From assembly GCA_013003115.1 (NCBI GenBank), contig JABDLF010000073.1, positions 9,025-73,024 on the forward strand: a stretch of DNA of 64,000 nt. Direction: 5' to 3'. A model generated the notes under the pieces. That model searched no databases and was not told where the DNA came from. It saw only the letters and a list, made by a program, of their open reading frames with translations. Of this stretch, positions 1,645 through 64,000 are shown in pieces (positions within the stretch are counted from its first letter, which is position 1; every line of letters starts with the position of its first letter). The position numbers and the translations under genes were made by a program. The stretch is from Gammaproteobacteria bacterium. GTDB taxonomy: Bacteria; Pseudomonadota; Gammaproteobacteria; Steroidobacterales; JABDLF01.

Positions 1645-1723
1645 GTTGTTGCCTCGCTCGGGGACTTCTGGGAAATTCAGGCAGGGCGCGGTGAGCCAGA
1701 AACGATTTTACGGGAGAAGTCAG

Positions 1724-5943: not shown

Positions 5944-6025
5944 TCAGTCGGGTGACAACAACTGTTTGCGCCCTCGCAGCCGAGGCCTTGTTTCGGCTGC
6001 TGATTTCTCTGCCGGGGGGTGTCCA

Positions 6026-12370: not shown

Positions 12371-12475
12371 ATTCGAGCCTGTCTGCCTAAGTTATACTCT
12401 GACCACGCCGTGCGTTGGCCGGCGAGCCCGGGGGATCGCACGCGAAGCTCCGGCACGACCACTAAAGGAAAACAG

Positions 12476-13516: not shown

Positions 13517-13549
13517 GCGGGCGCAACGCGCGCCGGGGAGTAAGCAATC

Positions 13550-14710: not shown

Positions 14711-14772
14711 TCAATAAGTCGGCCGTCAGCGGCCGCCGGGCCGCCCGGTACTAACAAGGACCGTATCGTCAG

Positions 14773-21825: not shown

Positions 21826-21829
21826 TTGC

Positions 21830-22384
21830 ATGAATGCCGGCAAAGAACTTCGCAGTCTGCGCGACCGGCCTTTTGAGCTTCTCAAGGAGTTGGACAGGCG
21901 CAGCCGCGCGAGCCAGCACGGTCAGGAGGGGGCCGGTTCCGGCTCCGGTGAGTGGGTTGGCGTCGCAATCCGTTCGGCTGGCCAGCAGTGGCTTGTGCCA
22001 CGCGACGAAGTTCGCGAAATCATGGAGTTCCCGCCTACCACTCGCGTGCCCGGCGCTCGCGACTGGGTGCGGGGAATAACCAACGTCCGCGGCCGCCTCG
22101 TCCCGGTGGTGGATTTGCTCGCGTTCAATTCTGAAGGGCCCACTGACGTTGGCCGGGCAAGCAGACTGATCGTTGTAAACCATGCAGAAATCCCGGCGGC
22201 GATCCTGGTTGACGAGGTGATGGGTTTTCGGCGCTTCGCGGCAAACGAGTTTCTCGCCGCAGCGGAAACGGCAGACGACGGGGGTTTTGTGCTCGGTCGT
22301 TGTCGGCGGGGCAAGGAAGAATGGCCAGTTCTGAGTTTGGCTGGACTGGTCGAGAGTTCGCGATTTTCGGATGTCGCAGCGTAG
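21830..22384 (+). CDS. pilI: CheW-like coupling protein PilI
   Basis: CheW-domain pattern VAIRSAGQQWLVPRDEVREIMEFP...VPGARDWVRGITNVRGRLVPVVDL...LIVVNH. It lies between pilH and pilJ. Confidence 0.8.
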   Translation: MNAGKELRSLRDRPFELLKELDRRSRASQHGQEGAGSGSGEWVGVAIRSAGQQWLVPRDEVREIMEFPPTTRVPGARDWVRGITNVRGRLVPVVDLLAFNSEGPTDVGRASRLIVVNHAEIPAAILVDEVMGFRRFAANEFLAAAETADDGGFVLGRCRRGKEEWPVLSLAGLVESSRFSDVAA

Positions 22385-22432
22385 ACGCGCGATCGCCGAG
22401 TTCATGCAATACCCAATAGGCAGGAAGTTACG

Positions 22433-23734: not shown

Positions 23735-23747
23735 GCATGGACCGCAG

Positions 23748-34382: not shown

Positions 34383-36200
34383 TCAGGGGCTCGTGTAGCT
34401 CAGGGAGAGCATGAGGCCACGGCCTGGCGAATTGAATCCTGCGGCCGTCTCGTAGCGGCTGTTGAGCAGGTTCTCGAGGCGCATTCTCAGTGCCATCCGG
34501 CGGCTGAGATCGACACGCGCGGTCACGTTAGCGAGCACGTAGCCGGCATTAACAATATCGGAGAAGGGCGAATCTCTGCGAGATTCCGACGCCAGTACGT
34601 CAAGACCAAGCTCCCCCCAGGACAGGGTGCGCGAAAAAGAGGTGCTGAGACTCCTTTTCGATCTGCGGGCGAGGGTGGTGCCGTCGGTCAGGTTTTCCGG
34701 GTTTTGCACAATCGCGCCAGCACGCCAGCGCCAGTCCTGTGCAACCAGCTCGTAGCTGACTTCGATGCCACTAATGCGGGCCCGTCCGACGTTAATATTC
34801 CCGCCTTCGAAGGTCACAGGGTCGAAAACGAACTCGATCAGGTCGTCGATTTTGTTTTGAAAAACACTGGTGGCAAGTCGCGCTCTGCCCAACTCGAAGT
34901 GCAGGCCTATCTCTGTGTTGCGAGCGCGCTCCGGGCGCAAGTCGGGGTTGCCACCGAAGCCGAACCGGTCTGTGCCGTCGGGTGCGCGGTAGGCGGTGCC
35001 AATGCCGAGGCTCAGGCTCAGGCGGTCGTCGATCTGCAGAGTGGGCTCAACGTTCCAGGTAAATGCCGAACCGAAACCGTCGTGATGACTGTGCCTGGCC
35101 GAAACGAGCAGCCGATGTTCAGCGAACTCGACAAAGTCGCTGAGATAGACGTCGCGGGTGCGTGTCTTGTCGGCGAAAAACGAACCAAATGACAGCGACT
35201 GGGTTCTTTCTTCGCCGACCGAAACGCCAGCGAGCAAGGTGTGCCCGGACCCCGGAGATACGGTGTTTTGCCAGTTGGCAACGATTCGATCAGTGCTGAC
35301 GTAGTCGTCACTGTCCAGCTGAACAATCTCGTCGCGTGTCTGGCTGAGAATAAGTTCCGATAGCCAGTTGTCGCGAAAACTGAGCCCGACTTCGGCGGCT
35401 GCAACGCTGTTCACAAAGTCCTGCTGAACGGGTGCAAGGAAGAAGTCGAGATATTCTGTTTCTCCGCGCGCCTCCCAGTAGCGTGCAGCCAGCGTTGTGC
35501 CACCGAAGGCGGTGTCGGCCTTGAAACTGAGCGTCGTGTTGCGGTGAGCGCGATCTGTCTCGGAATCACTGCGGGTTGGGAAACCATCAGTGTCGACGTT
35601 TGCGAGTCCGAAAACGATGCCGCCGCGCGACCCGCGCAGGCGGGATTCCACGGAGGCGCTGCGCGTATCGTATTTGCCGTGGCCGGCGCTTGCCGACCAG
35701 GCGAGCCCGTCTTCCGCGTTTCGGGTGATGATGTTGAGAACGCCGCCGATGGCCTCAGACCCCCACAGCGCTGATCGCGGCCCCTTTACAATTTCGATGC
35801 GTTCTATGACCTCGGGTCGAATATTCTGGATGGCAGCGCCACCCAGGGTTCCGGGATTGATCTCTACGCCATCCACGAGTACGAGGGTGTGATTGCTCTC
35901 TGTTCCGCGCAGAAAAAGGCCGGCATTTTGTCCGGGTCCACCGTTGCGGCCCAGTTCTATGCCTGCGTAAAAGCGCAACAATTCTGCGAGGTCGCCGGCC
36001 TGGCTGCGTTCAATCTCTGCCCGGCTTATTACGAGCACCGGCGCCGTCGCTTTCGTGAGATTCTGGGGAACGCGCGCAGCCGTCGAAATTACCGTGCTGA
36101 GTTCAGCCGGCACCTCAACATCGCGTGCCTCGCTGATACCGGAAGCAAGCAGCAATGTGGCTGCCGCAAACCAAGTCGTACGTAAATGAAAGCTTTGCAC
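34383..36200 (-). CDS. btuB: TonB-dependent outer-membrane receptor, cobalamin (BtuB-like)
   Basis: Signal peptide, plug domain (VLVISRAEIERSQAGDLAELLRFYAGIELGRNGGPGQNAGLFLRGTESNHTLVLVDGVEINP), then a beta-barrel. It sits directly behind a cobalamin riboswitch. Start trimmed from 36428 to GTG 36200 (AGGTAAAACG upstream). Confidence 0.87.
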   Translation of the reverse strand: MQSFHLRTTWFAAATLLLASGISEARDVEVPAELSTVISTAARVPQNLTKATAPVLVISRAEIERSQAGDLAELLRFYAGIELGRNGGPGQNAGLFLRGTESNHTLVLVDGVEINPGTLGGAAIQNIRPEVIERIEIVKGPRSALWGSEAIGGVLNIITRNAEDGLAWSASAGHGKYDTRSASVESRLRGSRGGIVFGLANVDTDGFPTRSDSETDRAHRNTTLSFKADTAFGGTTLAARYWEARGETEYLDFFLAPVQQDFVNSVAAAEVGLSFRDNWLSELILSQTRDEIVQLDSDDYVSTDRIVANWQNTVSPGSGHTLLAGVSVGEERTQSLSFGSFFADKTRTRDVYLSDFVEFAEHRLLVSARHSHHDGFGSAFTWNVEPTLQIDDRLSLSLGIGTAYRAPDGTDRFGFGGNPDLRPERARNTEIGLHFELGRARLATSVFQNKIDDLIEFVFDPVTFEGGNINVGRARISGIEVSYELVAQDWRWRAGAIVQNPENLTDGTTLARRSKRSLSTSFSRTLSWGELGLDVLASESRRDSPFSDIVNAGYVLANVTARVDLSRRMALRMRLENLLNSRYETAAGFNSPGRGLMLSLSYTSP

Positions 36201-36324
36201 CGTTTTACCTCGCCTGGTCGGACCCGGGAGCCTCTTCACCGGGTGATTCTTTCGACGGGCTGGTAAACAGACACAGACATGGCGCAGTGCTGCCCGACCT
36301 TCGCCCGCCGCAAAGTCGAAACAA

Positions 36325-36540
36325 TTGCTCGGGGCCGGTCTCCGGACTTGCGAGGGGCTGGCGCCCGTCAACATCACCTTCCCGCGTTTCCGCAGTGGTT
36401 GCAGGCCAGCCTGGCCTGCCAATGTCAACTTGCTCGCTTACCGTTGCGGGGGCAGTGTCGGAATTGTCCTCAAAAGGACGCACCGACTTCCCGTCGGACC
36501 GGTCAATGCCGGTCTCACCCTGAGCGGCGCCTACCATAGG
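36325..36540 (-). promoter_or_regulatory. cobalamin (B12) riboswitch in the btuB leader
   Basis: Minus strand carries GGGAAGUCGGUGCG (36481-36492), CACUGCCCCCGCAACGGUAAG (36437-36457), CCACUGCGGAAACGCGGGAAGG, and the B12 box AAGUCCGGAGACCGGCC (36333-36349). Boundaries are approximate. Confidence 0.88.
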
Positions 36541-44166: not shown

Positions 44167-46827
44167 ATGGCCAGGCACGTTGCACCCAGTCCCACCCACC
44201 TCGCTGACTACACGCCACCTGTCTATCTGGTGGAGCGTGTTGAGCTGCGTTTTCGATTGTTCGAAGACGCGACCCGGGTTGTGTCGCGAATGGCGCTGCG
44301 ACGAAATCCCGGGCAAACCGGCCGTAATCTTGTGCTCGACGGTCGCTCGCTTGAGCTTGTGCGCATTCTTAAGGACGGTCGCAAGCTTGCTGCCGCAGAT
44401 TATGAGCTTGGCGAAGAGTCGCTGTCCCTCATCGATCCCGGTGAAGTTTTCGAACTTGAAATTGAAACTCTCATACACCCGGAAAAAAACACCAGTCTCG
44501 AAGGGCTCTACAAATCCGGCGGGAATTTTTGTACTCAGTGTGAGGCAGAGGGCTTCCGCAAGATCACCTTTTACCCGGACCGCCCGGACGTACTGGCGCG
44601 CTTTAGCACCTACGTCGAAGCAGACCGGGGTCGATATCCGGTGTTGCTCTCGAACGGTAACCCTGTCGAATCGGGCGACCTGGAGAATGGCCGGCACTTT
44701 GCTCTCTGGGAGGACCCGTTTCCGAAACCCTCGTACCTCTTTGCGCTGGTAGCAGGTCGCCTTGCGCGCGTAGAGGGAGAGTTCACCACCTGCACAGGAC
44801 GCAAGGTGGCCCTGCATGTCTACGTCGAAGAGCACAACGCTGACAAGTGTGAGCACGCCCTCAGGTCACTGCAGGAGGCAATGCGCTGGGACGAAGAGCG
44901 CTTCGGCCGGGAGTACGACCTCGACATCTACATGATTGTAGCGGTGGACGATTTCAATATGGGGGCCATGGAAAATAAAGGCCTTAATATTTTTAATTCC
45001 AAATTTGTGCTTGCGAAACCGGAGTCGGCGACCGACCACGACTTTTATGACATCCAGAGCGTTGTTGCGCACGAGTACTTTCACAATTGGACCGGCAACC
45101 GGATAACCTGCCGCGACTGGTTTCAGTTGACGCTGAAAGAAGGTCTCACCGTATACCGCGACCAGGAGTTCAGCTCCGATCTCAATAGCAGGGCGCTCAA
45201 AAGAATCGAAGACGTTCGGTTTCTTCGCAATCGGCAGTTTGCCGAGGATGCCGGGCCCATGTCGCATCCTATTCAGCCGCACTCGTACATGGAGATTAAT
45301 AACTTCTATACGGCCACTGTTTACAACAAAGGCGCTGAAGTCATTCGCATGATCGAAACCATGCTCGGAAGGCGCGGCTTCAGGCGCGGTATGGATCTGT
45401 ATTTTGCCAGTCACGATGGCGAGGCAGCGACGACCGGTGACTTTTTGCGCGCAATGGAAGATGCCACTGGTTTCCAGTTGGCCCAGTTCCGCCGCTGGTA
45501 CAGCCAGGCGGGGACGCCGCGCCTCGGAGTGAGCTGCCGATTCGCGGAGGATGAGCAGTGTCTGCACCTGACTCTGCGGCAGCGACCTCCCGCGAATGTC
45601 GAGACAGACAGCTGGGAAGAATTACACATCCCTGTGCGCGTAGCCCTTCTCGATGAATCTGGCGCTGAACTGCCTCTCAGGCTGGAAGGAGAACAGGAGG
45701 CGGTATCTGGCAGCCGGGTGCTGGAATTGAAAGAAGAGCAGCGGACATTTCGTTTTGCCGGCATTGCGCGGCAGCCCGTGCTGTCGGTACTGCGCAATTT
45801 CTCTGCGCCCGTATTGCTCGATTTCGAGCAGGCACCGGCTGAGCTCGCCTTCTTAATGGCGCATGACACTGACCCGTTTAACCGCTGGGACGCAGGACAG
45901 AGGCTGGCAGCATGCGCGCTGCTTGCGAGGCTGGAAGGAGATGCTGCCCTGGCTGAGGAGAGCGAGTGTCTTTACATGGAGGGTTTGCGAAAAACGCTGG
46001 TCGACGACAGGCTGGATGCCGCGCTGGTGGCGCAGGCGCTCAGTCTGCCCATGGAAAGCGAGCTGGCAGGAAAAATGCCGGTGGTGGATGTGGATGGTAT
46101 TCACCGGGTTCGCGGGGAGCTCATGCTGCGCATTGCCGAAACGCTGCAGGAGGCGCTGCAGCAGGCCGCCGAGAGGCATTCAGGATGGGAAGCCGGTGAC
46201 AACGGCGCCCTTGCCGCCGCAGGGCGAGGCCTGTTCAACAGTTGCCTCAGCTTCCTTGTTCTGAATACGGACAGCGGTCGTGCGCTGGCTTTCTCCAGGG
46301 TCGAGAAAGGTCGCAACCTGACGGAACAGCTTGGCGCACTGCGCGCCCTTGTGCATTCTGACTGCGAAACCGCAGCACGGGCGCTGGAGATTTTCGAACA
46401 GCGTTGGCTTGTAAATCCGCTGGTTATGGACAAATGGCTGTCAGTGCAGGCGACTGCGCCGGTTGAAGGAGCGGCAAATCGCGTAGTCGCGCTCATGGAA
46501 CACCCCTGCTTTGATTTGCGCAATCCCAACCGCGCCCGTTCGCTACTCGGCTCCTTTGGTGAGGCCAACCCTTACGGATTTCATGCCCGCGACGGCAGCG
46601 GTTATCGTGTTATCAGCAACACCGTTATTGATCTCGATGGTTTTAACCCAAGCACCGCCGCCAGGCTGGTCGCCCCGCTGACGCGCTGGCAGCGCTATGA
46701 TGAGGGGCGCCAGGCACTTATGCAGGCAGAGCTCGAGCGAATTGCCGAACGCGACGAGCTCTCAAAAAATGTCTATGAACTCGTGAGCAATAGCCTCGAA
46801 GGTTCGGCACAACGGAGTCCGGAGTGA
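44167..46827 (+). CDS. pepN: aminopeptidase N
   Basis: GAMENKGLNIF exopeptidase motif, the HEYFHNWTGNRITCRDWFQLTLKEGLTVY zinc site, and a long ERAP-like C-terminal domain. Start trimmed from 43975 to the ATG at 44167. Confidence 0.95.
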   Translation: MARHVAPSPTHLADYTPPVYLVERVELRFRLFEDATRVVSRMALRRNPGQTGRNLVLDGRSLELVRILKDGRKLAAADYELGEESLSLIDPGEVFELEIETLIHPEKNTSLEGLYKSGGNFCTQCEAEGFRKITFYPDRPDVLARFSTYVEADRGRYPVLLSNGNPVESGDLENGRHFALWEDPFPKPSYLFALVAGRLARVEGEFTTCTGRKVALHVYVEEHNADKCEHALRSLQEAMRWDEERFGREYDLDIYMIVAVDDFNMGAMENKGLNIFNSKFVLAKPESATDHDFYDIQSVVAHEYFHNWTGNRITCRDWFQLTLKEGLTVYRDQEFSSDLNSRALKRIEDVRFLRNRQFAEDAGPMSHPIQPHSYMEINNFYTATVYNKGAEVIRMIETMLGRRGFRRGMDLYFASHDGEAATTGDFLRAMEDATGFQLAQFRRWYSQAGTPRLGVSCRFAEDEQCLHLTLRQRPPANVETDSWEELHIPVRVALLDESGAELPLRLEGEQEAVSGSRVLELKEEQRTFRFAGIARQPVLSVLRNFSAPVLLDFEQAPAELAFLMAHDTDPFNRWDAGQRLAACALLARLEGDAALAEESECLYMEGLRKTLVDDRLDAALVAQALSLPMESELAGKMPVVDVDGIHRVRGELMLRIAETLQEALQQAAERHSGWEAGDNGALAAAGRGLFNSCLSFLVLNTDSGRALAFSRVEKGRNLTEQLGALRALVHSDCETAARALEIFEQRWLVNPLVMDKWLSVQATAPVEGAANRVVALMEHPCFDLRNPNRARSLLGSFGEANPYGFHARDGSGYRVISNTVIDLDGFNPSTAARLVAPLTRWQRYDEGRQALMQAELERIAERDELSKNVYELVSNSLEGSAQRSPE

Positions 46828-48221
46828 TGGCAATTAAGCGAGCGCTGGTTGTAGATGATTCCAGGTCAGCAAGACTGATCCTGCGTCGCTTGCTGGAAAA
46901 GCATGGCCTCGATGTCGAGACGGCCGAGTCCGCCGAGCAGGCCCTGGAATACCTGCAAAATAAGCGACCCGACGCGATTTTCATGGATCACACGATGCCG
47001 GGCATGGACGGCCTGCAGGCCGTCAAAGCGATCAAGAACGACCCCAAGACCGCCATGATTCCGGTCATGATGTACACCGCAAAGGAAGGTGAGCTGTATG
47101 TGGGTCAGGCACGTGCCCTGGGCGCCGTAGGCGTACTGCCAAAACAGGTAGAACCTGCCGAGCTTTTCAAGGTCCTGCAGCGCCTTGGCCTCGTGACCGA
47201 CAAGCGCGGCGAAGAAGAGATGGAAAAGGCGCCGCCGGTGCTGAAACGGGGCGAGGAGCGCCGCCGCCGCGATGGGGAACCGCCCGGCATCCAGCTCAAG
47301 GGCCTCGTCGAGCGCATGCTGTCGGAGCAGCGCCATGAACTGCGCACGGACATCCTCGCAAGTCACCGTGCATTCGCCCGCCAGGTTGCTCGCGAGATTC
47401 TGGCAGAACAGAGGGCGGAGTTCGCGCGCCAGGATGCGGCTGCTGAAACTGACGATCAGGAAAAGGAAGCCAGGACTGAGGCCGGGCGCCAGGACGTGTC
47501 TGCGAGCTGGATGTGGTTTACGCTGATATTGCTGCTCACCAGCGCCTGGCTACTCTGGAACGGCTACCGGGCAGCCGAAGAAGTGGAGCGGCTGCAGCAG
47601 AGCGTTACGGGCCAGCGGACACTGCAGCGGGCCATGGTGGGTGGCAGCAGTGCGATAAGTCAGGATCAGGTTGGAAGCCTGCGGGCCCGGCTCGCGACTT
47701 CTGGCGATCAGCTTTACCGCATGCTGTCTGCCCTTGAGTGGGCAATCAACCAGGGCAATACGATCGCTTTCGGCGAGGTGGCCCTGAATGAGAGGCGAAT
47801 TGGTCTGGTGCGAGGCCTCCTCGAGCGCCTGGAGAGCCTGGGTTTTCAGGGCGTCGTGCGGCTCGAAACGCATCTCGGAAGATTTTGCCTGCGCGGCGAT
47901 GACAACGATACGTATGCACTCGCCGCAGCGGATCTGCAGGTGGATCAATGCACACTGATCGGGCACCCACTCGACGATTCCATGTCCGTTGGCGACAGGC
48001 AGTCCATCGAGTTTACAAATTTTCTTGACAGCTCGAAGCTGCTCGAAAGCGGCACAATCGAGATCCAGGTTGTTCACCACGGTCGCGCCGACTCAAGGGA
48101 GCTTTATCCTTATCCAAGAAGTGCGGCCACGGCGGGCGAGTGGAATGCAGTCGCCGCGCGCAACAACCGGCTTGAGGTCGCGTTGCTGCCGGATCCTGAC
48201 TGGCCGTTCCCGGCACCCTGA
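46827..48221 (+). CDS. receiver (REC) domain protein with a single TM helix and a C-terminal periplasmic domain of unknown family
   Basis: REC motifs VVDDS, AIFMDHTMPGMDG, MMYTA and LPKQ. A charged linker is followed by the TM helix WMWFTLILLLTSAWLLWNGY (about 47505-47564) and a roughly 215-aa C-terminal domain with two Cys. The start overlaps the pepN stop. Confidence 0.78.
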   Translation: MAIKRALVVDDSRSARLILRRLLEKHGLDVETAESAEQALEYLQNKRPDAIFMDHTMPGMDGLQAVKAIKNDPKTAMIPVMMYTAKEGELYVGQARALGAVGVLPKQVEPAELFKVLQRLGLVTDKRGEEEMEKAPPVLKRGEERRRRDGEPPGIQLKGLVERMLSEQRHELRTDILASHRAFARQVAREILAEQRAEFARQDAAAETDDQEKEARTEAGRQDVSASWMWFTLILLLTSAWLLWNGYRAAEEVERLQQSVTGQRTLQRAMVGGSSAISQDQVGSLRARLATSGDQLYRMLSALEWAINQGNTIAFGEVALNERRIGLVRGLLERLESLGFQGVVRLETHLGRFCLRGDDNDTYALAAADLQVDQCTLIGHPLDDSMSVGDRQSIEFTNFLDSSKLLESGTIEIQVVHHGRADSRELYPYPRSAATAGEWNAVAARNNRLEVALLPDPDWPFPAP

Positions 48222-52997: not shown

Positions 52998-53981
52998 TTG
53001 GAGGAGATCCTGGTCGAGCAGTTGATGAGCACCGACGTGCCCATCATGGACGCGAGTCAGCCACTTGCCCTTGCCGTTCGCGAGATGTCGGCGCGTTCGC
53101 TCTCTTGCATGATTCTGCTAAATGAAAGCGCTACGCCTGTCGGCATCATCACCGAGCGCGACATGATTTCGATCGCTGCCCTTGCGCTCGACGGCAAAAT
53201 CGACTGGCATGAACCCGCTGCCGATCACATGAGCGCACGGCTCATATATTTGCGGCCTGAGCAGTCGTTGTTCGAGGCGTTGGTTGTGGCGCGGGCACGT
53301 GAGGTTCGGCACTTGCCCGTGCTGGGCAAGGACAACAAGCTGGCTGGCATCGTGACAGCGACCGAGATGGTGCGTGCCCACTTCAGCGTGTTCGAGTCGC
53401 TGAGCGAAGCGGCTGAAAAGACGGTCGCCGTTCGCCGCGACGACTTTGCCTCAGTAACGGCCCGACTACGGACGTTGTCGCTGGAAGACCCGCTGCTGGG
53501 CATCGGCAACCGCCGAGCCCTCGATCGAGACATGGAACACATTGAGGGCGCGTCGCGCCGTTATCAGCACGTATATTCGGTTGCAATGTTCGATGTGGAT
53601 CGTTTCAAGGCCTACAACGACCGTTACGGGCACCCCGCGGGAGATCGGGTTCTGAGAGAAATCGTCACCATTTTTTCAGCAGCACTGCGCAGCGCCGATC
53701 GTCTTTTTCGTTATGGTGGTGAAGAGATTCTCCTGCTGATGCCCGAAACCGACCTTCCCGGTGCAATGATCGTCGCAGATCGTTTGCGCGAAAGCCTGGA
53801 AGTCCGGGCGCTGCCGCACGAAAAATCGAAGCGCGGCGTGGTAACCGTAAGCGGTGGAGTTGCTGAGGGTGGTTTCAGGCATGAGCCCCCTGGCTGGGAG
53901 GCCGTCGTGCATGCTGCCGACAGGGCGCTTTACAAGGCCAAAAAGAGCGGCCGCAACCGAGTGATAAGCAGCACAGATTGA
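52998..53981 (+). CDS. diguanylate cyclase with a tandem CBS sensor pair
   Basis: Two CBS repeats (VEQLMSTDVPIM...VGIITERDM; ADHMSARLIYLRPE...LAGIVTATEM). GGDEF domain with DPLLGIGNRRAL, FDVDRFKAYNDRYGHPAGD, I-site RSAD and active site RYGGEEI. TTG start, or ATG at 53025. Confidence 0.86.
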   Translation: MEEILVEQLMSTDVPIMDASQPLALAVREMSARSLSCMILLNESATPVGIITERDMISIAALALDGKIDWHEPAADHMSARLIYLRPEQSLFEALVVARAREVRHLPVLGKDNKLAGIVTATEMVRAHFSVFESLSEAAEKTVAVRRDDFASVTARLRTLSLEDPLLGIGNRRALDRDMEHIEGASRRYQHVYSVAMFDVDRFKAYNDRYGHPAGDRVLREIVTIFSAALRSADRLFRYGGEEILLLMPETDLPGAMIVADRLRESLEVRALPHEKSKRGVVTVSGGVAEGGFRHEPPGWEAVVHAADRALYKAKKSGRNRVISSTD

Positions 53982-56794: not shown

Positions 56795-58039
56795 ATGAGC
56801 TTTGTAAAACAACTTAGCTGCGTGGGTTGCGGTCGCCATTTCGAGGCCGCTGCGCTGATGAATCTTTGCCCGGATGACCAGCGGCCCCTGGCGATGGAGC
56901 TGGACATTCCGGCCCTGAAAGCCGCCTATCCACGAAACGAATGGTATGAGCGCGAGCGTCGCGACATGTGGAAGTTCACGAGTCTGCTGGGTCTGGATAT
57001 TAATGACGCGGAAGATGCCCGCCACCTTGTGAGCCTGGGTGAAGGCGCAACCCCGCTGCGCAACTATCCGGAGCATCCTCAGGCAAAGCTGCTTGAGCTC
57101 GACCTTTACTTCAAAGACGAAGGCAGGGCAGAGCCCGGTTATGGTGCCAATCCCACCCAGAGTTTTAAGGATCGCGGCATGGCGATGGCGGTTTCCATGG
57201 CTCGCCGTCACGGACTTACGAAACTCGTGGTCCCCACCCAGGGAAACGCAGGCGATTCACTTGCTGAGTATGCGCTGGCCGCGGGTATCGAAGCCGCCAT
57301 CATCATGCCCGGCGATACGCCGATGCCGATCCTCGGTCGTGTGGCTGCGCTTGCGCGTCAGCACGAGAGCATCATCCTGGAAACATGCGAGGGCACGATT
57401 CGCGAAGCCGGCGACATCATGCGCAGCAAATACCTGCCTGCCGGCTATTTCAATGTCGCCACTTTTCAGGAACCGGGCTGGCGTATAGAGGGAAAGAAAA
57501 CGCTGGGGCTGGAAATAGCTGAACCGCGCAGCGGCGACACTTGGCAGTTGCCGGACGTGATTGTCTACCCCACCGGCGGCGGTACAGGTATTCTGGGCAT
57601 GTGGAAAGCCTTTGCCGAACTGGAGGCGCTTGAGCTCATAGGGTCACAGCGCCCGCGCATCGTTTCGGTGCAGAGCGAGGGAACAGCGCCCATTGTCCGC
57701 GCCTTCGAAAATGGTGACGATGACACGGCAGCGGCCACCGCCGGGCATACCCTGGCGACCGGTCTTAACGTCCCGGGTGGGGTAGGGCACGCGAAAGTTC
57801 TGCAAATTCTCCGCGAGAGCAGGGGACATGCCCTCACGGTGAGCGAGCGCGCTATGGAAGAGGAGCTTGCGCGCTGCTGGAAACAGACCGGCTGGTGGAT
57901 AAGCCCGGAAGGCGCCGCCACCCTGGCGGCGCTTGCGCCCCTCGCCGAGATTGGGTTCCTGCGCGGGGGCGAACGAGTGGTCGTCGTCAACACCGGTTCT
58001 TTCGAGAAGTATCTGCCCTCTCTGCGCCATCTCCTGTAA
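56795..58039 (+). CDS. threonine synthase (PLP-dependent, with an N-terminal Cys-rich zinc-ribbon-like segment)
   Basis: CVGCGRHF...LCPDD, PLP lysine motif TQSFKDRGMA, and the GNAG and TGGGTG loops. Confidence 0.83.
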   Translation: MSFVKQLSCVGCGRHFEAAALMNLCPDDQRPLAMELDIPALKAAYPRNEWYERERRDMWKFTSLLGLDINDAEDARHLVSLGEGATPLRNYPEHPQAKLLELDLYFKDEGRAEPGYGANPTQSFKDRGMAMAVSMARRHGLTKLVVPTQGNAGDSLAEYALAAGIEAAIIMPGDTPMPILGRVAALARQHESIILETCEGTIREAGDIMRSKYLPAGYFNVATFQEPGWRIEGKKTLGLEIAEPRSGDTWQLPDVIVYPTGGGTGILGMWKAFAELEALELIGSQRPRIVSVQSEGTAPIVRAFENGDDDTAAATAGHTLATGLNVPGGVGHAKVLQILRESRGHALTVSERAMEEELARCWKQTGWWISPEGAATLAALAPLAEIGFLRGGERVVVVNTGSFEKYLPSLRHLL

Positions 58040-58061
58040 CGAGGTGAGAGTACGTTAAGCC

Positions 58062-58811
58062 ATGGTCAGCGATTTCTTTTTCGGATTCTCCCACGCGTGG
58101 TCTGGCCTGACTGCCCTGAGGACCCCCGGACTCGGTCGATTTGTCGCCTGGCCGATTGTGATCAGCGTGGCCGTTTTTGCGATTGTCATCGCGGCTGCGG
58201 TGGCGGGGTTCGATGCCCTGATTGACTGGCTGCTGGCGTGGCTTCCGGGCTGGCTGGACTGGCTGCGCTGGTTGCTGTGGCCGGTCTTTGCGCTCACGGC
58301 AATGCTGTTTGCAATTTACCTGTTTACATTACTGGCAAACCTGATCGGCGCCCCATTCAACGGCTTGCTGGCTGCGAAGTATGAAAGCTATCTTGCTGGC
58401 GCGGCACCTCCTGCGGACAACCGGTCTTTACTGGCATCGAGCCTGTCGTCGCTTGCGACCGAAGTGCGCAAGCTGGCCTATCTTGCGCGCTGGTTATTAT
58501 TGGCGGCGGTTCTTTTTTTGATTCCAGTCATAAACCTGATCGCGCCGATCATCTGGCTGATCATGGGCGCATGGCTGCTGGCACTCGAGTATGGCGGATA
58601 CGCGATGGACAACCACGGCATTGATCCGAAGCGGCAGCGCCAGATTCTCGCCGGACGCCGCGGCCTGGCCCTCGGATTCGGCGCGGGAGTGATGTTCCTA
58701 AGCAGCGTGCCCCTGCTCAACCTTCTGGCGATGCCGGCTGCGGTGCTCGGCGCGACACGCATGTGGTGTTCGCTGGGCGAAGAAGTTCGCCCTTCGCCGG
58801 GCGACTCTTAA
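58062..58811 (+). CDS. cysZ: sulfate transporter CysZ
   Basis: Collinear with E. coli CysZ as I recall it: PGLGRFVAWPIVISV, LIGAPFNGLLA, WLLALEYGGYAMDNHG, PLLNLLAMPAAVLGATRMW. Confidence 0.88.
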   Translation: MVSDFFFGFSHAWSGLTALRTPGLGRFVAWPIVISVAVFAIVIAAAVAGFDALIDWLLAWLPGWLDWLRWLLWPVFALTAMLFAIYLFTLLANLIGAPFNGLLAAKYESYLAGAAPPADNRSLLASSLSSLATEVRKLAYLARWLLLAAVLFLIPVINLIAPIIWLIMGAWLLALEYGGYAMDNHGIDPKRQRQILAGRRGLALGFGAGVMFLSSVPLLNLLAMPAAVLGATRMWCSLGEEVRPSPGDS

Positions 58812-59221
58812 TTGCCTGTTCGGCTGGCTCGCTTTTCTTCGAAAGTACGCAGACCCTCTGAGCCAGTGACGTGCATTTCACCGTCCACCACCGCGCCCTT
58901 CGCAACTGCGATCATAGGCGCTGAGACGTCACCTTCTATTCTCGCCGTTGCGGCTACCTCAAGCTGCTTTTCGGCATGTGCGCTGCCGTGCAGTTCACCG
59001 GCAATAAGTATTCTTTCTGCCTCGATCTGTCCTTGCCAGCGCCCGGTATCGGACACGGTAATTGTCCCAGCAAGTTTGCAGTCACCCTTTATTCTGCCAG
59101 CCACAATCAGGTGGCCTATGCCTTTGATATAGCCATCAATAACGACACCCTCTGCGATCAGGTTGGTTGCTTCACCCGAAACGGCTTTGTCGAGGAATCT
59201 CCGCAGTGGACTTCGAGACAT
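58808..59221 (-). CDS. bactofilin-family cytoskeletal protein
   Basis: Beta-helix repeat pattern VIDGYIKGIGHLIVAGRIKGDCKLAGTITVSDTGRWQGQIEAERILIAGELHGSAHAEKQLEVAATARIEGDVSAPMIAVAKGAVVDGEMHV. Confidence 0.82.
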   Translation of the reverse strand: MSRSPLRRFLDKAVSGEATNLIAEGVVIDGYIKGIGHLIVAGRIKGDCKLAGTITVSDTGRWQGQIEAERILIAGELHGSAHAEKQLEVAATARIEGDVSAPMIAVAKGAVVDGEMHVTGSEGLRTFEEKRASRTGN

Positions 59222-59233
59222 AGTTATCCTTAA

Positions 59234-60154
59234 TCAGACTGCTGCGGGCTTGTCGCTGGGTTTGCGGTAGCGCTCGACCTTATTCCCACCCTCGTCTGAG
59301 GCAATTTTTACGGCGGTCTCAGCCGCCGTCAGAATATCTGCGGGGTCATGTACGCGGTTGGGCAGAATAGTGGCGACCCCGACGCTGAACGTAACGCGAT
59401 CTGCGGTTTCCGAGGCGTCGTGCGGTATCGGGATATTCCAAACTGCTTTGCAAAGTCTCTCGGCGAAGCGTACCGCGACATCTCCGTCGGAAGTGAAGAT
59501 GATGGCAAAGCTATCATCGTCGTAGCGTGCCGGCAGGTCGCCTGCCCTTCTGAAAATTGTTCGCACCTCGTCCGCAATTTTTTGCATCGCCTCGTCGAAG
59601 CGACTGTCACCGTAGGATTGCCGGAAGGCTTCGGCCCAGTCGAATCTGCCGAGGATGATCGAAAAGGCCTTTTCTTCGCGCAGAGCCCGCTTGATTTCGT
59701 GGGGTATGACCTGGTCGAAATGCTGGCGATTTGAGAGCTGCGTGAGCTCGTCCACTACGATAAGTTTTCTCAGGCGGGCTGTCGCAGCGCTCAGTTCTTC
59801 ATTTTTTTCTTCCAGCTCGCTGATCTGCCCGCTCAGGCTTTCCTCGATCTCGCGCTTCTTTTCGCTCAGTTCAGCAAGGGCCTCATCGCGCTCGCCGATT
59901 ACGTGTTCGATGGTTTCGCTCTGCTCTATGATCTCGGCCTGCTGGCGGCGGCCCTTCAGATAAAAAAAGACGGCCAGCGCAGACACAAGCAGCAAGGCGC
60001 CTGCAACAACTATGAATACGATGCCGCTGCCGGCGCCTGTAATTTGTGCGAGAGCCAACTGCGGTGCCGCTGCAAAGACAGCAACCAAAATCCAGCGCAC
60101 GATAAAGTTTTTTCTGCGCTGCAACCTACGCGTCGATGCATTCAAACTCATCAT
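59234..60154 (-). CDS. membrane-anchored coiled-coil protein with a degenerate GGDEF domain (active site lost, RxxD I-site retained)
   Basis: Two hydrophobic helices, a heptad-rich segment (EALAELSEKKREIEESLSGQISELEEKNEELSAATARLRKL), and a GGDEF fold (DELTQLSNRQHF). The active site reads RAGD-LPARY-DDDSF instead of RxxD-x5-GG[DE]EF. Its ATG overlaps the upstream stop (ATGA). Confidence 0.8.
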   Translation of the reverse strand: MMSLNASTRRLQRRKNFIVRWILVAVFAAAPQLALAQITGAGSGIVFIVVAGALLLVSALAVFFYLKGRRQQAEIIEQSETIEHVIGERDEALAELSEKKREIEESLSGQISELEEKNEELSAATARLRKLIVVDELTQLSNRQHFDQVIPHEIKRALREEKAFSIILGRFDWAEAFRQSYGDSRFDEAMQKIADEVRTIFRRAGDLPARYDDDSFAIIFTSDGDVAVRFAERLCKAVWNIPIPHDASETADRVTFSVGVATILPNRVHDPADILTAAETAVKIASDEGGNKVERYRKPSDKPAAV

Positions 60155-61377
60155 CCTCGTGTCCCATCTCCGAGTGTAGCCTGCCAGCGATCCAGCCAGT
60201 CGGGCATATCCTTGCCCGGCATGGGCCGCGCTATAAAAAATCCCTGGCCTTCGTCGCATCCGAGCCGACTAACCAGATCCCAGTCCGTCTGCGTGGCAAT
60301 GCCCTCGGCCACGACGCGCAGCTTGAGTTCGTGTCCGAGGCGGATCGAAGACTCTACTATAGCGCGAGAGTCGGGATTGCGGTGTGCGTCAGAGACAAAG
60401 GTACGATCAAGTTTGAGCTCGCAGAACGGGAATTCCTGCAGCTGCTGCATCGTGGAGTAGCCCGTGCCGTAGTCGTCAATCGACAGATCGAAACCCTTGA
60501 TGCGCAGTCGGGTCAGGATATCAAGCGCGGCGACGTGATCGTTGCGCAACCAGCTCTCGGTAATCTCTAAAACCACCTGCTCCGGTCGAATATTGTGCCG
60601 CCTGGCCAAAGCGGAGATCTTGTCCGGCAATTCGAGATCAGTAAGGGAGCGGGTGGAAACATTGATGGATACCTTGAGATCAAGACCGCCTGTCAGCCAG
60701 TCAGAACATTGTGCGAATGACTTTTCCATAACGGCGCTGGTTACGGCGTTGATCAGGCCTCCCTCTTCGGACATTTCGATGAAGCGATCGGGTGACAGCA
60801 GGCCGAGGCTCGGATGCTGCCAGCGCACCAGCGCTTCAACGGAATTAATTCTTAACTCATGCAGATGAATTTTCGGCTGAAAATAAACGCGCAGCTCGTC
60901 GCGCTCGATGCCGGCCCGAAGGTCTTCCAGCTTTGGAAAGGCTTTGAACTTGAGCGTCCTCTCGACCGCGGTTTGTTCGACGTTGGCTAGCATGTTTTCG
61001 AGCACCGAGTCGGAAAACGGCTTGGTCAGCGTGCCGATCACCCAAAGCTTCTGTGCCCGGGCGAGGCGCTCTGCGGCTCCCAGGACGCGCGGATCGAAGC
61101 GGCTGGTCAGTATCACGCCTGCAGGGCTTCGGTGACCGGAGAGTGCCCGTATTATTTCGACACCGTCAGGCTCGGTCAGCATCAGATCGATGACGACAAC
61201 GGAGGTCTCGGCGTCGTAGCGCCGACTGAAATCTTCGTAATCGGTGCAGGCGTGCGCATCGTAGCCGGCACGACGGGCGACGCGTGCAATCTCGTGCGCC
61301 ATCTCGATACTGCTGTCGATCACCAGTAGCCTGGGTGTCAAAGTGCCTGCAGCGCCTGAATTTCTTGGAGTCGACAT
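60151..61377 (-). CDS. response regulator with an EAL c-di-GMP phosphodiesterase output domain
   Basis: REC motifs LLVIDSS, VVVIDLML, ILTS and TKPF. EAL motifs YFQPK, EALVRW, EITES, SIDDYGTGYS, ELKLDRTF, AEGI and GQGFFIARP. Start trimmed from 61446 to the ATG at 61377. Confidence 0.87.
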   Translation of the reverse strand: MSTPRNSGAAGTLTPRLLVIDSSIEMAHEIARVARRAGYDAHACTDYEDFSRRYDAETSVVVIDLMLTEPDGVEIIRALSGHRSPAGVILTSRFDPRVLGAAERLARAQKLWVIGTLTKPFSDSVLENMLANVEQTAVERTLKFKAFPKLEDLRAGIERDELRVYFQPKIHLHELRINSVEALVRWQHPSLGLLSPDRFIEMSEEGGLINAVTSAVMEKSFAQCSDWLTGGLDLKVSINVSTRSLTDLELPDKISALARRHNIRPEQVVLEITESWLRNDHVAALDILTRLRIKGFDLSIDDYGTGYSTMQQLQEFPFCELKLDRTFVSDAHRNPDSRAIVESSIRLGHELKLRVVAEGIATQTDWDLVSRLGCDEGQGFFIARPMPGKDMPDWLDRWQATLGDGTRG

Positions 61378-61633
61378 GAATGCCCGATAGATTTTGCCAG
61401 CCCAAGTCTGGGCCAACGCAGTGCGACAGGCAAGCACGGGCGTCACAGATGTACGAGCCTGAAGCTGCCAAAATGCTGACTGGATCCAGCGCCTGCGGGG
61501 AAGTCATCGAGGTGAGCGGCTCAGCATCAAGCCTCAATGCTAATGCGCGCGGCGCAGACTATGCTGCGTTCCACGCAGGCGCTTGCGCCGAATGTCTCAG
61601 CGGAGGTGGTTTATCGGCCCGGCCGGAAATCCT

Positions 61634-61906
61634 TCAGTTGCGCCTGCCAGAGGGTGAGCGCTGGGAGCCTTTGTGGGCCTTGTTGATTCGCAGCGGGCGG
61701 CCTTCTACTTCGCTGCCATTCAGCGCTTCGCTGGCGGCGGCCGCGTCGGTCTCGTTCATTTCAACAAAGCCAAACCCCCTCGGCTGGCCCGTCTCCCGGT
61801 CATAGACGAGTTTTATTTCATGCACTGTTCCATAGTCCGCAAACAGTTCCCGGAGCTGATCTTCCGTCGTCGAAAAGGGGAGATTGCCTACGTAAAGTGA
61901 AGCCAT
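61634..61906 (-). CDS. RRM-type RNA-binding protein
   Basis: RNP2 LYVGNL and RNP1 RGFGFVEM, with a short basic Gly/Ser/Arg tail. GAGGT RBS. It begins 17 nt after the ydbL-like stop. Confidence 0.87.
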   Translation of the reverse strand: MASLYVGNLPFSTTEDQLRELFADYGTVHEIKLVYDRETGQPRGFGFVEMNETDAAAASEALNGSEVEGRPLRINKAHKGSQRSPSGRRN

Positions 61907-61923
61907 CGCTTACCTCGCCTGAC

Positions 61924-62532
61924 TTACTTTCGGACCCAGGTGCCGCCGTCGTTTTGGTAGTACCACCCGGGCTTTGCATTGGCGACCCAGCGGCGCGCGA
62001 AGGTCGCGCGAATCTCATCTTCCCACTCCGGATGTTCATTTGCGATGGCGATTTCACGGTACAGGGCATCGCGATCGCGATTCTCGTCCGCAACGAGCTG
62101 CCTGACGGTGTTGCGATCCTTCAACGCTACGGCGGTGAGGTCGCGCACAGCAACCATTGCATCGGAAGTGAAGCCTACCGCGCCACTGTCATAGAAAGCC
62201 TCCAGCTGCGGATTGCGCGCCTTCATCGCCGCCTGGATTCTGCGCACGCCGGGCGAAGAGATGTCGAGATTGGCCTGCTGTGCATGGGCCGAAGGTACAA
62301 GCAATTCCAGCAGCCCGCGGGACGCGCGCAAGAGCATTGTTGCACCCGGTGTTCCTGATGCGGCGCTTTCGTTATCGAGCGATCTGCTGCTGTTGCCCTC
62401 GGTGCCAAGGACATCGTTGATGATTTTGTCAGCGGCTTGTTCGGCCGCGGCCGCGGGGAAGTAGACATTGATCGTGACGCATGCGGCCAGCAACAGGCCA
62501 ACCAGCAGTGCCGCGTATTTCGTGGTTCTCAT
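61924..62532 (-). CDS. ydbL: YdbL (DUF1318)-family protein with an N-terminal YnbE-like lipoprotein module (apparent fusion)
   Basis: Lipobox LLLAAC followed by VTINVYFP. An internal signal-peptide-like segment (MLLRASRGLLELLVPSAHAQ) follows, then the DUF1318 body ending KPGWYYQNDGGTWVRK. Start trimmed to the ATG at 62532 (GGAG upstream). Confidence 0.7.
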   Translation of the reverse strand: MRTTKYAALLVGLLLAACVTINVYFPAAAAEQAADKIINDVLGTEGNSSRSLDNESAASGTPGATMLLRASRGLLELLVPSAHAQQANLDISSPGVRRIQAAMKARNPQLEAFYDSGAVGFTSDAMVAVRDLTAVALKDRNTVRQLVADENRDRDALYREIAIANEHPEWEDEIRATFARRWVANAKPGWYYQNDGGTWVRK

Positions 62533-62614
62533 AAAGGGGTACTCCTCTGGGCAACCAGGCATTCAGACTGCCAGTGTTGCTACATGTTCACAATGATTAT
62601 ACGACCAATGGGTA

Positions 62615-64000
62615 TCAGGGGCGGACTGAGGCGCTACTCGCGTTGATGTTACGCAGCTTGGCAACCAGTGTGGGCCAGCTGACACGACTGCGGTAGCCAA
62701 TCACATTTATGCGCGGCAGGCCTTTGCCTTTGACAATGTAGTAGCCGCCGTTGGGTGCCGGAGCGACACCGCTCATACTGCAGATTTCGTCCTCGAGCAC
62801 GCAACTCCAGCCAATTTTATCGTAAGCGAAGTCTTCGAAGAAACGCAGCAGGCCGCGCGACAGAACAGCGGTGGCACCGGCACCCCCGAGGTCCGAGATA
62901 TTTTCAATCGCCTGCTGGCTTATGCGGTGGCGTGAACGGTCATTTGGTGTCGTATAGAGTTTTGCGCCAAAGCTGACTGGCGAGAAACCGAGCATTCGCA
63001 GCTGTTTGAGCTCACCGTCGAGTCGACCTTCCATGTGGCCGAAGCTGAAAGTCGAAGACAATGCGGCGAGGTCAACGGTCCTGATCGTCACATCCGCCGT
63101 AGCCTGCGGGAGCACCCCGAAAGGCTCTGAGATATAGAGGTTATCAATGGTGATGCTGCCGTCGAAAACCTCCGCACTCATCGCACCAGCCACCGTGATT
63201 GCATTGTTCGCAAGGCGCATTCTCGGAATCCGGCCAGACAGGGTGCCCGAAAACGGAGGCCAGCCAAGCGCCCGTGTGAGCGCCCTGAGTCCAATCTGCT
63301 CGATGTCAGCCTCAAACTCGAGGTCCGGCAGGTCAGACTCGCTTGTGGCGAGTTCGAAGCGCGACAATCGAAGTCGGCCGTCAAGCACGGGGATCACGGC
63401 GGGCTCGACCAGCAAAACATTGCCACGACCGGTGTCCAGCGTTAACTTCGCCGCGCCAACGCCAATTTTGTAGACATAGCCGCCTTGCCAGGACAGCAGC
63501 GATCTGCCGATGGCATCGCCTTGCCAGTTGACGTTGCCTTCCAGCCCGTAGAGTGCAAACCGGCCTCGCCTGTCATCCAGGTAAATCTCCGTAAGCCCCA
63601 GCTCCAATGCACGGAGGGTAGGCCCGGAGAAATCGGCCTTAACCTCGATTGCACCGGCTGTTTCGAGGCTGTCAGCGCTCGTCCCGACGAGAAATGGCTG
63701 CAGGTAAACATCGTAGGCGCCTGGCAGCACTGCGCGCCCTGAAGTGACCGCAGCCTGACGAAGTTCGCCATTGCGCCCATCGATAGCGAGCTCGCCTGTA
63801 AACGCGCCGATGCCCGCCTGCTCGGTCTTGAAGTCCACCAGCCAGTCGCCGTCTGCGGGGATGACAACACTGGCGCTGAGTACAAGCGGATTCAGTGCAA
63901 AGTCAATGAACACGGGGAGGAAATATGCCTGGCCCCGGGACTCGCTCAACGTGAGGTCAGCCAGCCAATCCGTGTCATCGCGACGAGCATCGAAGTCAAT
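62615..64000 (-). CDS. ydbH: YdbH-like large AsmA-family envelope protein, C-terminal part (gene runs off the right edge)
   Basis: The reading frame stays open from 64000 with no stop upstream of the track's TTG at 63949. It is a long beta-rich sequence sitting immediately upstream of a ydbL homologue, as in E. coli ydbH-ynbE-ydbL. The family call rests mostly on synteny. Confidence 0.55.
   Translation of the reverse strand: MDFDARRDDTDWLADLTLSESRGQAYFLPVFIDFALNPLVLSASVVIPADGDWLVDFKTEQAGIGAFTGELAIDGRNGELRQAAVTSGRAVLPGAYDVYLQPFLVGTSADSLETAGAIEVKADFSGPTLRALELGLTEIYLDDRRGRFALYGLEGNVNWQGDAIGRSLLSWQGGYVYKIGVGAAKLTLDTGRGNVLLVEPAVIPVLDGRLRLSRFELATSESDLPDLEFEADIEQIGLRALTRALGWPPFSGTLSGRIPRMRLANNAITVAGAMSAEVFDGSITIDNLYISEPFGVLPQATADVTIRTVDLAALSSTFSFGHMEGRLDGELKQLRMLGFSPVSFGAKLYTTPNDRSRHRISQQAIENISDLGGAGATAVLSRGLLRFFEDFAYDKIGWSCVLEDEICSMSGVAPAPNGGYYIVKGKGLPRINVIGYRSRVSWPTLVAKLRNINASSASVRP

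Follow-up and report, generated by a model that had tools for sequence, protein, structure and literature searches.

Bactofilins polymerise independently of nucleotides and recruit client proteins that are often encoded by adjacent genes, such as PbpC. Degenerate GGDEF proteins that keep the RxxD inhibitory site (I-site), among them PelD, PopA, Bdellovibrio CdgA and SgmT, are receptors of cyclic di-GMP (c-di-GMP) that control localisation or an associated machine. PelD is a transmembrane-GAF-GGDEF protein encoded in the pel operon, PopA has a REC-REC-GGDEF organisation and SgmT is a histidine kinase. Here we analyse a 64,000-nt stretch of DNA from a Gammaproteobacteria bacterium metagenome-assembled genome (MAG), hereafter the window, in which genes for an intact-looking EAL phosphodiesterase (gene 1), a membrane-anchored pseudo-diguanylate cyclase (gene 2) and a bactofilin (gene 3) lie head to tail on the minus strand. 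All three open reading frames (ORFs) are present and packed where an earlier note, made from the sequence alone, had placed them (coordinates in Table 1). This trio is real and conserved, is built from known kinds of parts and lies within a larger, undescribed association of bactofilins with EAL enzymes.

The bactofilin systems of Caulobacter (BacA-PbpC), Myxococcus (BacNOP-PadC) and Helicobacter (CcmA-Csd) resemble the trio in their homologous bactofilin core, and a membrane client can aid attachment of the polymer (PMC12448750). Their clients, however, are cell-wall enzymes or chromosome-segregation adaptors and not second-messenger enzymes. Like the PelD/PopA/CdgA/SgmT class, gene 2 has lost the catalytic motif and kept RxxD, c-di-GMP binding being predicted here from sequence; the members of that class have other architectures and none is encoded with a bactofilin. 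Membership of gene 2 in the PelD, PopA, CsrD or LapD groups was ruled out on architecture, and identity with PelD also by the lack of a GAF domain (Pfam) and of pel genes in the flanks. RocR and PvrR of P. aeruginosa have the same REC-EAL architecture as gene 1, and the EAL catalytic motifs and phospho-acceptor Asp of RocR align with those of gene 1 (alignment over residues 59-394). While the NCBIfam PvrR model is the top match of gene 1, orthology to PvrR or RocR was ruled out by its score of 251 bits versus an equivalog cut-off of 580 bits. Gene 1 further differs from both in a D-S pair in its receiver, in the lack of a cognate kinase or Roc-type context, and in its bactofilin and pseudo-cyclase neighbours, which are peculiar to this type of locus. 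In the open full-text literature, judged mostly by titles and abstracts and with most subscription-journal papers outside its scope, we found no described module joining a bactofilin to a c-di-GMP enzyme; within that scope, this agrees with the earlier note, which knew of no described c-di-GMP-to-bactofilin module with this architecture.

The product of gene 1 matches the Pfam EAL family (PF00563) at 1.7e-67 (227.7 bits against a cut-off of 31.3), and its closest solved relatives are MucR-EAL (5e-54) and RocR (3SY8, REC plus EAL, 2e-50). Its translation contains every EAL motif listed in the earlier note (EALVRW, EITES, DDYGTGYS, KLDRTF, AEGI and QGF) along with the Asn of SINVS, and the set EALVRW, N, EITES, DDYGTGYS, KLDR(TF), AEGI and EGQGF is kept across the two clades of trio relatives described below. 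These motifs align with RocR and MucR, the catalytic residues are kept in every homolog examined, and the domain looks catalytically intact. A Met aligned in the homologs supports the start at 61377. The EAL, GGDEF and Bactofilin assignments of the trio were all matched by Pfam, and the description of gene 1 as REC plus EAL holds for its EAL part; the receiver is marginal (Response_reg, 30.1 bits against a cut-off of 30.2). Residue D64 is the phospho-acceptor Asp, opposite D56 of RocR and D57 of E. coli CheY, and the receiver retains the Thr (ILTS) and the Lys (TKPF). The second Mg-binding acidic residue, corresponding to the D12/D13 pair of CheY, is less well kept: the pair reads D-S in the window and in all of clade A and D-D in clade B, and Response_reg is annotated in the clade B homologs and only weak or faint in those of clade A. 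No histidine kinase gene occurs within 6-10 kb in any trio relative examined. Because one acidic residue is lost and no histidine kinase is encoded nearby, phosphorylation of the clade A receiver is possible yet doubtful. The proposal that the phosphodiesterase is phosphorylation-controlled is uncertain in the window: the Asp, Thr and Lys are kept, and the Ser and the missing kinase weaken it.

Gene 2 begins within the ATGA shared with the end of gene 1, as verified in the sequence, and encodes a protein identical (100%) to an annotated NCBI protein of 306 amino acids (P0001) from a Gammaproteobacteria bacterium MAG. It matches Pfam GGDEF (PF00990) at 8.5e-29, which supports the proposed GGDEF fold. 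Its best PDB sequence relatives are WspR and GCN4-WspR, and the top Foldseek matches of its AlphaFold model, in which residues 135-295 have the GGDEF fold, are WspR, GcbC and DgcB, each at a probability of 1.00. Gene 2 and WspR, a diguanylate cyclase of P. aeruginosa, share a helical stalk leading directly into the GGDEF domain and conserved I-site residues, yet WspR is active, soluble and REC-controlled whereas gene 2 is catalytically degenerate and membrane-anchored and has no receiver. Relative to WspR, DxDxFK has become RFDWAE (the first Asp of DxD is lost, the second retained), the guanine-binding Asn has become Arg and GGEEF has become DDDSF; the strings DDDSF, LGRFDW and RAGD-LPARY-DDDSF read exactly as the earlier note had given them. 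The GGDEF position drifts across the family (DKDSF, GNDTF, NHDTF, DDSAL and others), with GGEEF only in the outlier P0023. As read from these alignments, the active site is destroyed. A role as a GTP-sensing regulatory GGDEF domain was ruled out, the nucleotide-binding residues being lost and variable.

The I-site tells the opposite story of conservation. R203-A-G-D206 (within FRRAGD), five residues upstream of the GGDEF position, is invariant in 23/23 members of the gene 2 family, and RAGD is also kept in a sister clade (L005-L011). In the family alignment R159 is invariant as well and R233 is at least 90% conserved; we take R233 to lie opposite R390 of PleD (the AER position), a less certain placement that comes from a hand-made alignment. 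R203/D206 correspond to R242/D245 of WspR, and R159 aligns with its R198. In WspR, intercalated dimers of c-di-GMP, bound by R242 and R198, link adjacent GGDEF domains, R242xxD245 being the RxxD core (PMC2270323). An invariant I-site next to a decayed catalytic site is the mark that selection leaves on a pseudo-enzyme retained as a putative c-di-GMP binder, and both the WspR alignment and the 23-member family alignment bear out the earlier reading of a dead active site with a kept I-site.

The membrane topology of gene 2 had been described as two hydrophobic helices. Both segments are present (residues 17-36 and 43-66), but the first looks like a signal peptide, with a positively charged N-region, an ALA-Q end (family consensus P..AAAQ) and a putative signal-peptidase cleavage site; about 8 residues separate it from the strong transmembrane helix. 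Since the first segment resembles a signal peptide, the mature protein may have a single transmembrane helix. In the AlphaFold model (mean predicted local distance difference test score, pLDDT, of 81), residues 43-133 form one continuous helix (pLDDT about 90) that comprises the transmembrane helix and a 67-residue stalk. This stalk corresponds to the predicted heptad-rich segment of roughly 70 residues: 63% of its heptad a/d positions are hydrophobic in one register, it aligns to the GCN4 zipper of 3i5c, and its length is kept without indels in clades A and B.

Gene 3, whose ORF was verified 12 nt past gene 2, matches Pfam Bactofilin (PF04519) at 5.2e-22 (78.4 bits against a cut-off of 27.9) and, in the PDB, Caulobacter BacA (2N3D, 1.3e-10) and a Thermus bactofilin (6RIA). 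The 12-nt spacer before its ATG at 59221 contains an AAGGA Shine-Dalgarno sequence. AlphaFold predicts a beta-strand core over residues 19-127, with 10-residue block means of pLDDT between 92 and 98 over residues 21-120, lower values in the blocks at the core ends (54 for 19-20 and 74 for 121-127) and a low-confidence, flexible N-terminal tail. That tail, MSRSPLRRFLD, follows a subfamily consensus M-x4-[LK]RRxxD: in the three subfamily alignments (A2, A3 and A4), R8 and D11 never vary and R7 never or hardly ever does, and the motif recurs across 80 metagenome loci. At the C-terminus, K130 and R131 are invariant in A2-A4, as are F127 and E129 in A2 and A4, with at least 90% conservation of the latter two in A3. 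F127 lies within the last predicted strand; its equivalence to the polymerisation residue F130 of BacA was ruled out, as the BacA alignment sets F130 opposite V112. Canonical bactofilins carry MFSKKKK-type N-termini, a membrane-targeting consensus established for 14,337 bactofilins (PMC12448750), whereas gene 3 and its subfamily lack this motif and have RRxxD and FxEKR instead. Because the canonical peptide is absent, the gene 3 bactofilin probably depends on a partner for its placement; in Caulobacter, the role of the bactofilin's membrane peptide can be taken over by a client protein in the membrane (PMC12448750). In composition, the bactofilin gene has a third-position GC content (GC3) of 0.51, against 0.65-0.74 in its neighbours and 0.645 and 0.667 in the other two trio genes, and the strongest AT skew of the window (-0.21) falls in the 58-60 kb bin. 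Long antisense ORFs cover the bactofilin and pseudo-cyclase genes (58812-59132, 59348-59734 and 59655-59963, all on the plus strand) and are also found in relatives; they are probably compositional artefacts, of a kind that misleads longest-ORF gene calling in GC-rich loci.

Relatives of the trio were sought by a genome scan with the gene 2 alignment, context look-ups for exact proteins and tblastn mapping. Co-occurrence of the three genes outside the source genome, singled out beforehand by the earlier note as a test of its proposal, was found in two diverged clades of uncultured Gammaproteobacteria. Clade A groups the window with L001-L003 and L026-L029, whose flanks are syntenic with it over more than 10 kb; identity to the window is 76-84% for the EAL protein, 57-75% for the pseudo-cyclase and 68-81% for the bactofilin, and a 4-bp overlap joins genes 1 and 2 in the window and in L026-L029, the clade A loci with called genes. 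Clade B (L004 and L019-L021) has a different upstream flank, identities of 49%, 31-44% and 43-46%, respectively, and a gap of 100-130 bp between genes 1 and 2. Two other gene 2 homologs stand apart: P0022, on a short contig, is flanked by neither an EAL nor a bactofilin gene, and the active-looking P0023 (GGEEF) has neither gene on contigs of about 2 kb.

The surroundings of the trio vary among these loci. An opposite-strand YbaK/tRNA_edit gene lies between the RRM-protein and REC-EAL genes in L026, L028 and L029; it is absent from the window, where only a 256-bp gap (61378-61633) is found, and the gap is about 800 bp in L001-L003. Next to HtpX, and some 5 kb away from the trio, follows a CBS-CBS-GGDEF gene that L026 and L028 have in synteny; its product is a possible local source of c-di-GMP. 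Another could be a DUF484-GAF-GGDEF protein, presumably an active cyclase, encoded upstream of REC-EAL on the minus strand in L019 (2985-4076), L020 (2994-4082), L026 (1081-2175), L028 (3110-4201) and L104 (495-1685). In the source organism this gene would lie just past the window end at 64000.

A search with the single bactofilin sequence reached only close relatives, and an alignment-based metagenome scan and a profile search extended the reach. The profile search returned at least 1,904 cluster representatives at E <= 1e-10, a general threshold with no subfamily-specific criterion; where source labels are given, these are Gammaproteobacteria MAGs only. From the metagenome scan, the best 80 of 265 relatives were analysed (full-length matches, 40-48% identity). 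The RRxxD and FxEKR motifs are present in every one of them, and their neighbours were traced by reading frame from the tblastn matches, which was informative for 39 of the 80 loci. An EAL gene adjoins or nears the bactofilin gene in 36 of these 39, in three arrangements. A same-strand EAL protein of about 700-850 amino acids is encoded downstream in 34 loci, immediately in 30 and past one inserted gene in 4. The EAL gene lies immediately upstream in two, L104 with a complete REC-like and EAL protein and L030 with only a 65-codon EAL 3' end, and three loci have no EAL gene near the bactofilin. In L030 and L104 the EAL gene is followed directly by the bactofilin gene, with no pseudo-cyclase between them (in L104 the order is DUF484-GAF-GGDEF, divergent, then REC-like-EAL, then bactofilin).

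The commonest partner is a 2TM-HAMP-PAS-(A)GDEF-EAL protein with an intact-looking EAL domain and no RxxD. On a 3.49-Mb circular-looking assembly, gshA, DUF2845, bactofilin, HAMP-PAS-GGDEF-EAL and pspFABC genes follow one another in this order. This gshA/pspFABC locus type resembles the trio in having a bactofilin of the same subfamily with an EAL enzyme alongside; it differs in its chromosomal site and in its partner, one large membrane sensor enzyme encoded downstream with no separate pseudo-cyclase. The 80 loci cluster into a marine(-sediment) clade of 58, a soil clade of 14, the L030/L104 pair and three singletons. A downstream EAL gene is found in 33 loci of the marine clade, L061 being its sole informative locus without one. 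Overall, bactofilin-EAL adjacency occurs in four of five assessable clades, with three partner architectures and in at least four chromosomal contexts (the gshA-psp, RRM-CysZ and ADH-rhomboid loci and L104). Since L104 and L030 have no pseudo-cyclase and the partner in the largest clade has no RxxD, it is the EAL enzyme, not an I-site receptor, that is the constant partner. The conserved core thus appears, from these comparisons, to be an EAL phosphodiesterase plus a bactofilin, the pseudo-cyclase being a lineage-specific insert into an older REC-EAL and bactofilin pair. For the same reasons the trio is not the self-contained module it had been taken for, and the recurrence of a pseudo-cyclase next to a bactofilin, true of clades A and B, gives way in the wider survey to an EAL neighbour.

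Two other genes recur around the bactofilin subfamily. DUF2845 lies directly upstream of the bactofilin in the 3/3 marine loci checked (L075 4584-4979, L110 7573-7959 and L091 4326-4715) and also follows P0023 (L024 1841-2170), the only gene 2 homolog with an intact GGEEF, which hints at DUF2845 as a further shared component. The second encodes a REC protein of about 440-465 amino acids, found at 46824-48221 (+) in the window, 5441-6793 (-) in L061, 5433-6758 (-) in L091 and 1458-2774 (-) in L089. This response regulator has a strong REC domain and, judged by eye, an apparent hydrophobic (membrane) segment. Its last 200 or so residues have no Pfam or PDB match and end in NNRxEV, which may recall OmpA-like domains. 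Its gene is convergent to the bactofilin gene in the soil clade and L061 and inserted between the bactofilin and GGDEF-EAL genes in L091, and a gap of roughly 1.7 kb between these two genes, as in L091, is seen in L045, L050 and L100. In the window, 10.6 kb separate this gene from the trio, and over its full length its product shares 39% identity with that of L061.

We tentatively read the trio as a lineage-specific elaboration of the wider bactofilin-EAL pairing, in which the bactofilin scaffolds the phosphodiesterase and gene 2 tethers the assembly to the membrane and confers a response to c-di-GMP; we hold this to be plausible, if not quite probable. The bactofilin would polymerise into a scaffold, as is usual for the family (its beta-helix core is predicted here by the model), and, without the MFSKKKK peptide, would be placed through a partner. 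The adjacent EAL enzyme would be its client, a link suggested by the adjacency in four of the five assessable clades and by the way bactofilins recruit neighbour-encoded clients of the PbpC type, and c-di-GMP degradation would be concentrated at the polymer. The REC-EAL enzyme of the trio is soluble. The inserted gene 2 would provide a tether to the membrane, a stalk for dimerisation and a sensor of c-di-GMP. Dimers of c-di-GMP bound at the I-site may bridge two GGDEF-like domains as in WspR, and such bridging would alter the geometry or oligomeric state of the stalk and thereby the membrane association of the bactofilin, the phosphodiesterase or both. The net result would be a spatially confined c-di-GMP sink, tuned by c-di-GMP feedback, with a cytoskeletal polymer as its organiser. 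A further input may come through the receiver domain, although in clade A this is perhaps no longer phosphorylated.

Several observations weigh against this scaffold reading. Its support is comparative, the interaction, c-di-GMP binding, enzymatic activity and co-transcription all being predicted. With 58 of the 80 loci belonging to a single marine-sediment clade, the 36 of 39 do not represent independent events. In the soil clade, the two informative loci have no EAL or GGDEF neighbour and keep the RRxxD tail. Were this tail a membrane peptide of an unconventional kind, as it could be, no tether would be needed. The operon is not delimited by signals, as a promoter and terminator scan of 58000-62700 gave counts at or below the shuffle expectation. 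Finally, the sister pseudo-cyclases of L005-L011 keep the anchor, the stalk and RAGD, have a decayed GGDEF motif and are encoded with no bactofilin. Their gene (e.g., L007 5998-6855) adjoins gshA, a single-domain REC gene and a gene for a 760-residue EAL protein, near pspFABC; the EAL protein is presumed to be a GGDEF-EAL enzyme, the EAL domain being the one detected. The site is the chromosomal one at which the marine clade has DUF2845, bactofilin and GGDEF-EAL.

The earlier note had proposed a linear chain, in which REC-EAL would set local c-di-GMP, the membrane receptor would read it and the bactofilin scaffold would be the output or partner. In such a chain the pseudo-cyclase would read c-di-GMP at its I-site, and assembly, release or repositioning of the bactofilin would govern a downstream process, for instance envelope growth, polarity or motility. 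The linkage of the genes and the receptor-like features on which this was built have held, and the chain is one possible reading; the evidence does not favour it and we consider it somewhat unlikely. It would explain the intact, invariant I-site beside the decayed catalytic site, and the existence of RxxD-bearing degenerate GGDEF receptors as a class agrees with it. Co-expression would agree with the order of the genes, their close packing and the good Shine-Dalgarno sequence ahead of gene 3, and a bactofilin without the canonical membrane peptide would here meet a membrane-anchored receptor. However, a reader should be the constant neighbour of an output bactofilin, and the EAL domain is found in its place: L104 and L030 join EAL to bactofilin without any reader, and the partner enzyme of the main clade has no RxxD. 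Nor is a gene for a bactofilin client such as a peptidoglycan enzyme or ParA found nearby in the trio relatives examined.

A more restricted relationship, in which the pseudo-cyclase is a split subunit that anchors and regulates the phosphodiesterase only, as a degenerate GGDEF domain may control an adjacent EAL domain, and the bactofilin is an unrelated neighbour, seems decidedly unlikely to us. The 4-bp translational overlap does couple gene 1 with gene 2 and not with gene 3, the bactofilins of the main clade are partnered by GGDEF-EAL tandems, and the stand-alone sister clade sits near a presumed GGDEF-EAL gene without a bactofilin. Yet bactofilin-EAL adjacency in three architectures and several contexts is hard to explain without a functional link, and the active-site residues needed for GTP sensing are lost and variable. 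We give still less weight to a bactofilin that is itself c-di-GMP-responsive, its RRxxD tail binding the messenger alone or with the I-site of gene 2 while EAL enzymes reset it, and regard this as very unlikely. The tail is flexible in the model and RRxxD is invariant across a subfamily of about 40% overall identity; RxxD is moreover the core of the GGDEF I-site, and c-di-GMP dimers bridge arginines of different chains (PMC2270323). Against this, five residues in a disordered tail make a weak case, Arg-rich N-termini can simply bind anionic lipids, and the soil clade retains the motif with no c-di-GMP gene nearby. Inherited synteny within one lineage without functional coupling is most improbable, for while every example comes from uncultured Gammaproteobacteria and the clade A loci are syntenic over long distances, the clade B trio has another upstream flank and the pairing persists at the gshA-psp, RRM-CysZ, ADH-rhomboid and L104 loci with different partner architectures.

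Table 1. Features of the trio and one nearby c-di-GMP-related gene in the window.
Feature	Position	Strand	Description	Basis
Gene 1	60151..61377	-	REC-like receiver and intact-looking EAL phosphodiesterase, 408 aa	Pfam, PDB relatives, motifs
Gene 1 REC-like domain	60988..61326	-	residues 18-130	alignment to CheY, RocR and homologs
Gene 1 EAL domain	60223..60927	-	residues 151-385	Pfam, PDB relatives, homolog alignment
Gene 1/gene 2 overlap	60151..60154	-	ATGA stop/start	sequence
Gene 2	59234..60154	-	membrane-anchored coiled-coil pseudo-diguanylate cyclase, 306 aa	Pfam, PDB relatives, AlphaFold
Gene 2 first hydrophobic segment	60047..60106	-	residues 17-36	hydropathy scan; ends in ALA-Q
Gene 2 transmembrane helix	59957..60028	-	residues 43-66	hydropathy up to 2.99; then KGRRQQ on cytoplasmic side
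Gene 2 helical stalk/coiled coil	59756..59956	-	residues 67-133	AlphaFold helix, heptad register
Gene 2 GGDEF-fold domain	59279..59755	-	residues 134-292	Pfam, WspR alignment, Foldseek
Gene 2 inhibitory-site RxxD	59537..59548	-	R203-A-G-D206	family alignment; WspR R242xxD245
Gene 2 degenerate GG[DE]EF position	59507..59521	-	DDDSF	family alignment
Gene 3	58808..59221	-	bactofilin of a distinctive subfamily, 137 aa	Pfam, PDB, AlphaFold
Gene 3 N-terminal motif	59189..59203	-	R7-R8-x-x-D11	subfamily alignments
Gene 3 C-terminal motif	58829..58843	-	F127-x-E129-K130-R131	subfamily alignments
CBS-CBS-GGDEF protein	52998..53981	+	context only	Pfam GGDEF 1.4e-36 and CBS

Elsewhere in the window, two plus-strand stretches (12077-15831 and 21460-29441) hold type IV pilus ATPase genes, namely one for a T2SSE-family ATPase (Pfam) and two PilT/PilU-like ORFs (by eye). 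The same stretches contain a Pil-Chp-like cluster with genes for a methyl-accepting chemotaxis protein and a 1,897-residue multi-Hpt CheA-like protein (Pfam), together with genes that look by eye like those of a single-domain REC protein and a CheW-like protein. An Rfam scan of the whole window gave a cobalamin riboswitch as its sole match (36316-36537, minus strand, 89 bits) and no c-di-GMP riboswitch near the trio. The 5' end of a gene for a TonB-dependent receptor carries this riboswitch, which the listed ORF (34383-36428) overlaps by about 110 nt, so the true start of the receptor gene is probably further downstream. At 61924-63949 (-), a DUF1318 (YdbL-like) gene is preceded by an ORF of 444 amino acids (697 in L026) without Pfam match, an arrangement which we take to resemble the ydbH-ynbE-ydbL envelope operon of E. 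coli.

A long-standing question is how c-di-GMP signalling can be local and specific when dozens of cyclases and phosphodiesterases share one diffusible messenger. The pairing of a phosphodiesterase with a nucleotide-independent cytoskeletal polymer, bridged in the trio by a putative membrane c-di-GMP sensor, offers a concrete and testable physical mechanism, and its components, all small, could be rebuilt in E. coli although the organisms they come from are uncultured. It also defines a bactofilin subfamily whose N-terminus departs from a recently established membrane-targeting rule, and it would add second-messenger enzymes to the cell-wall and chromosome-segregation factors known as bactofilin clients. 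A bolder generalisation, which we judge unlikely, is that the whole subfamily (the 1,904 or more representatives at the above threshold) is a dedicated c-di-GMP organiser, recruiting EAL enzymes to a membrane site and itself responding to c-di-GMP through the RRxxD tail or the I-site of a pseudo-cyclase, so as to form a self-limiting microdomain templated by the cytoskeleton. If true, this would give bactofilins a new class of clients and would place local c-di-GMP signalling, in abundant Gammaproteobacteria of sediments and soils, on a new physical basis.

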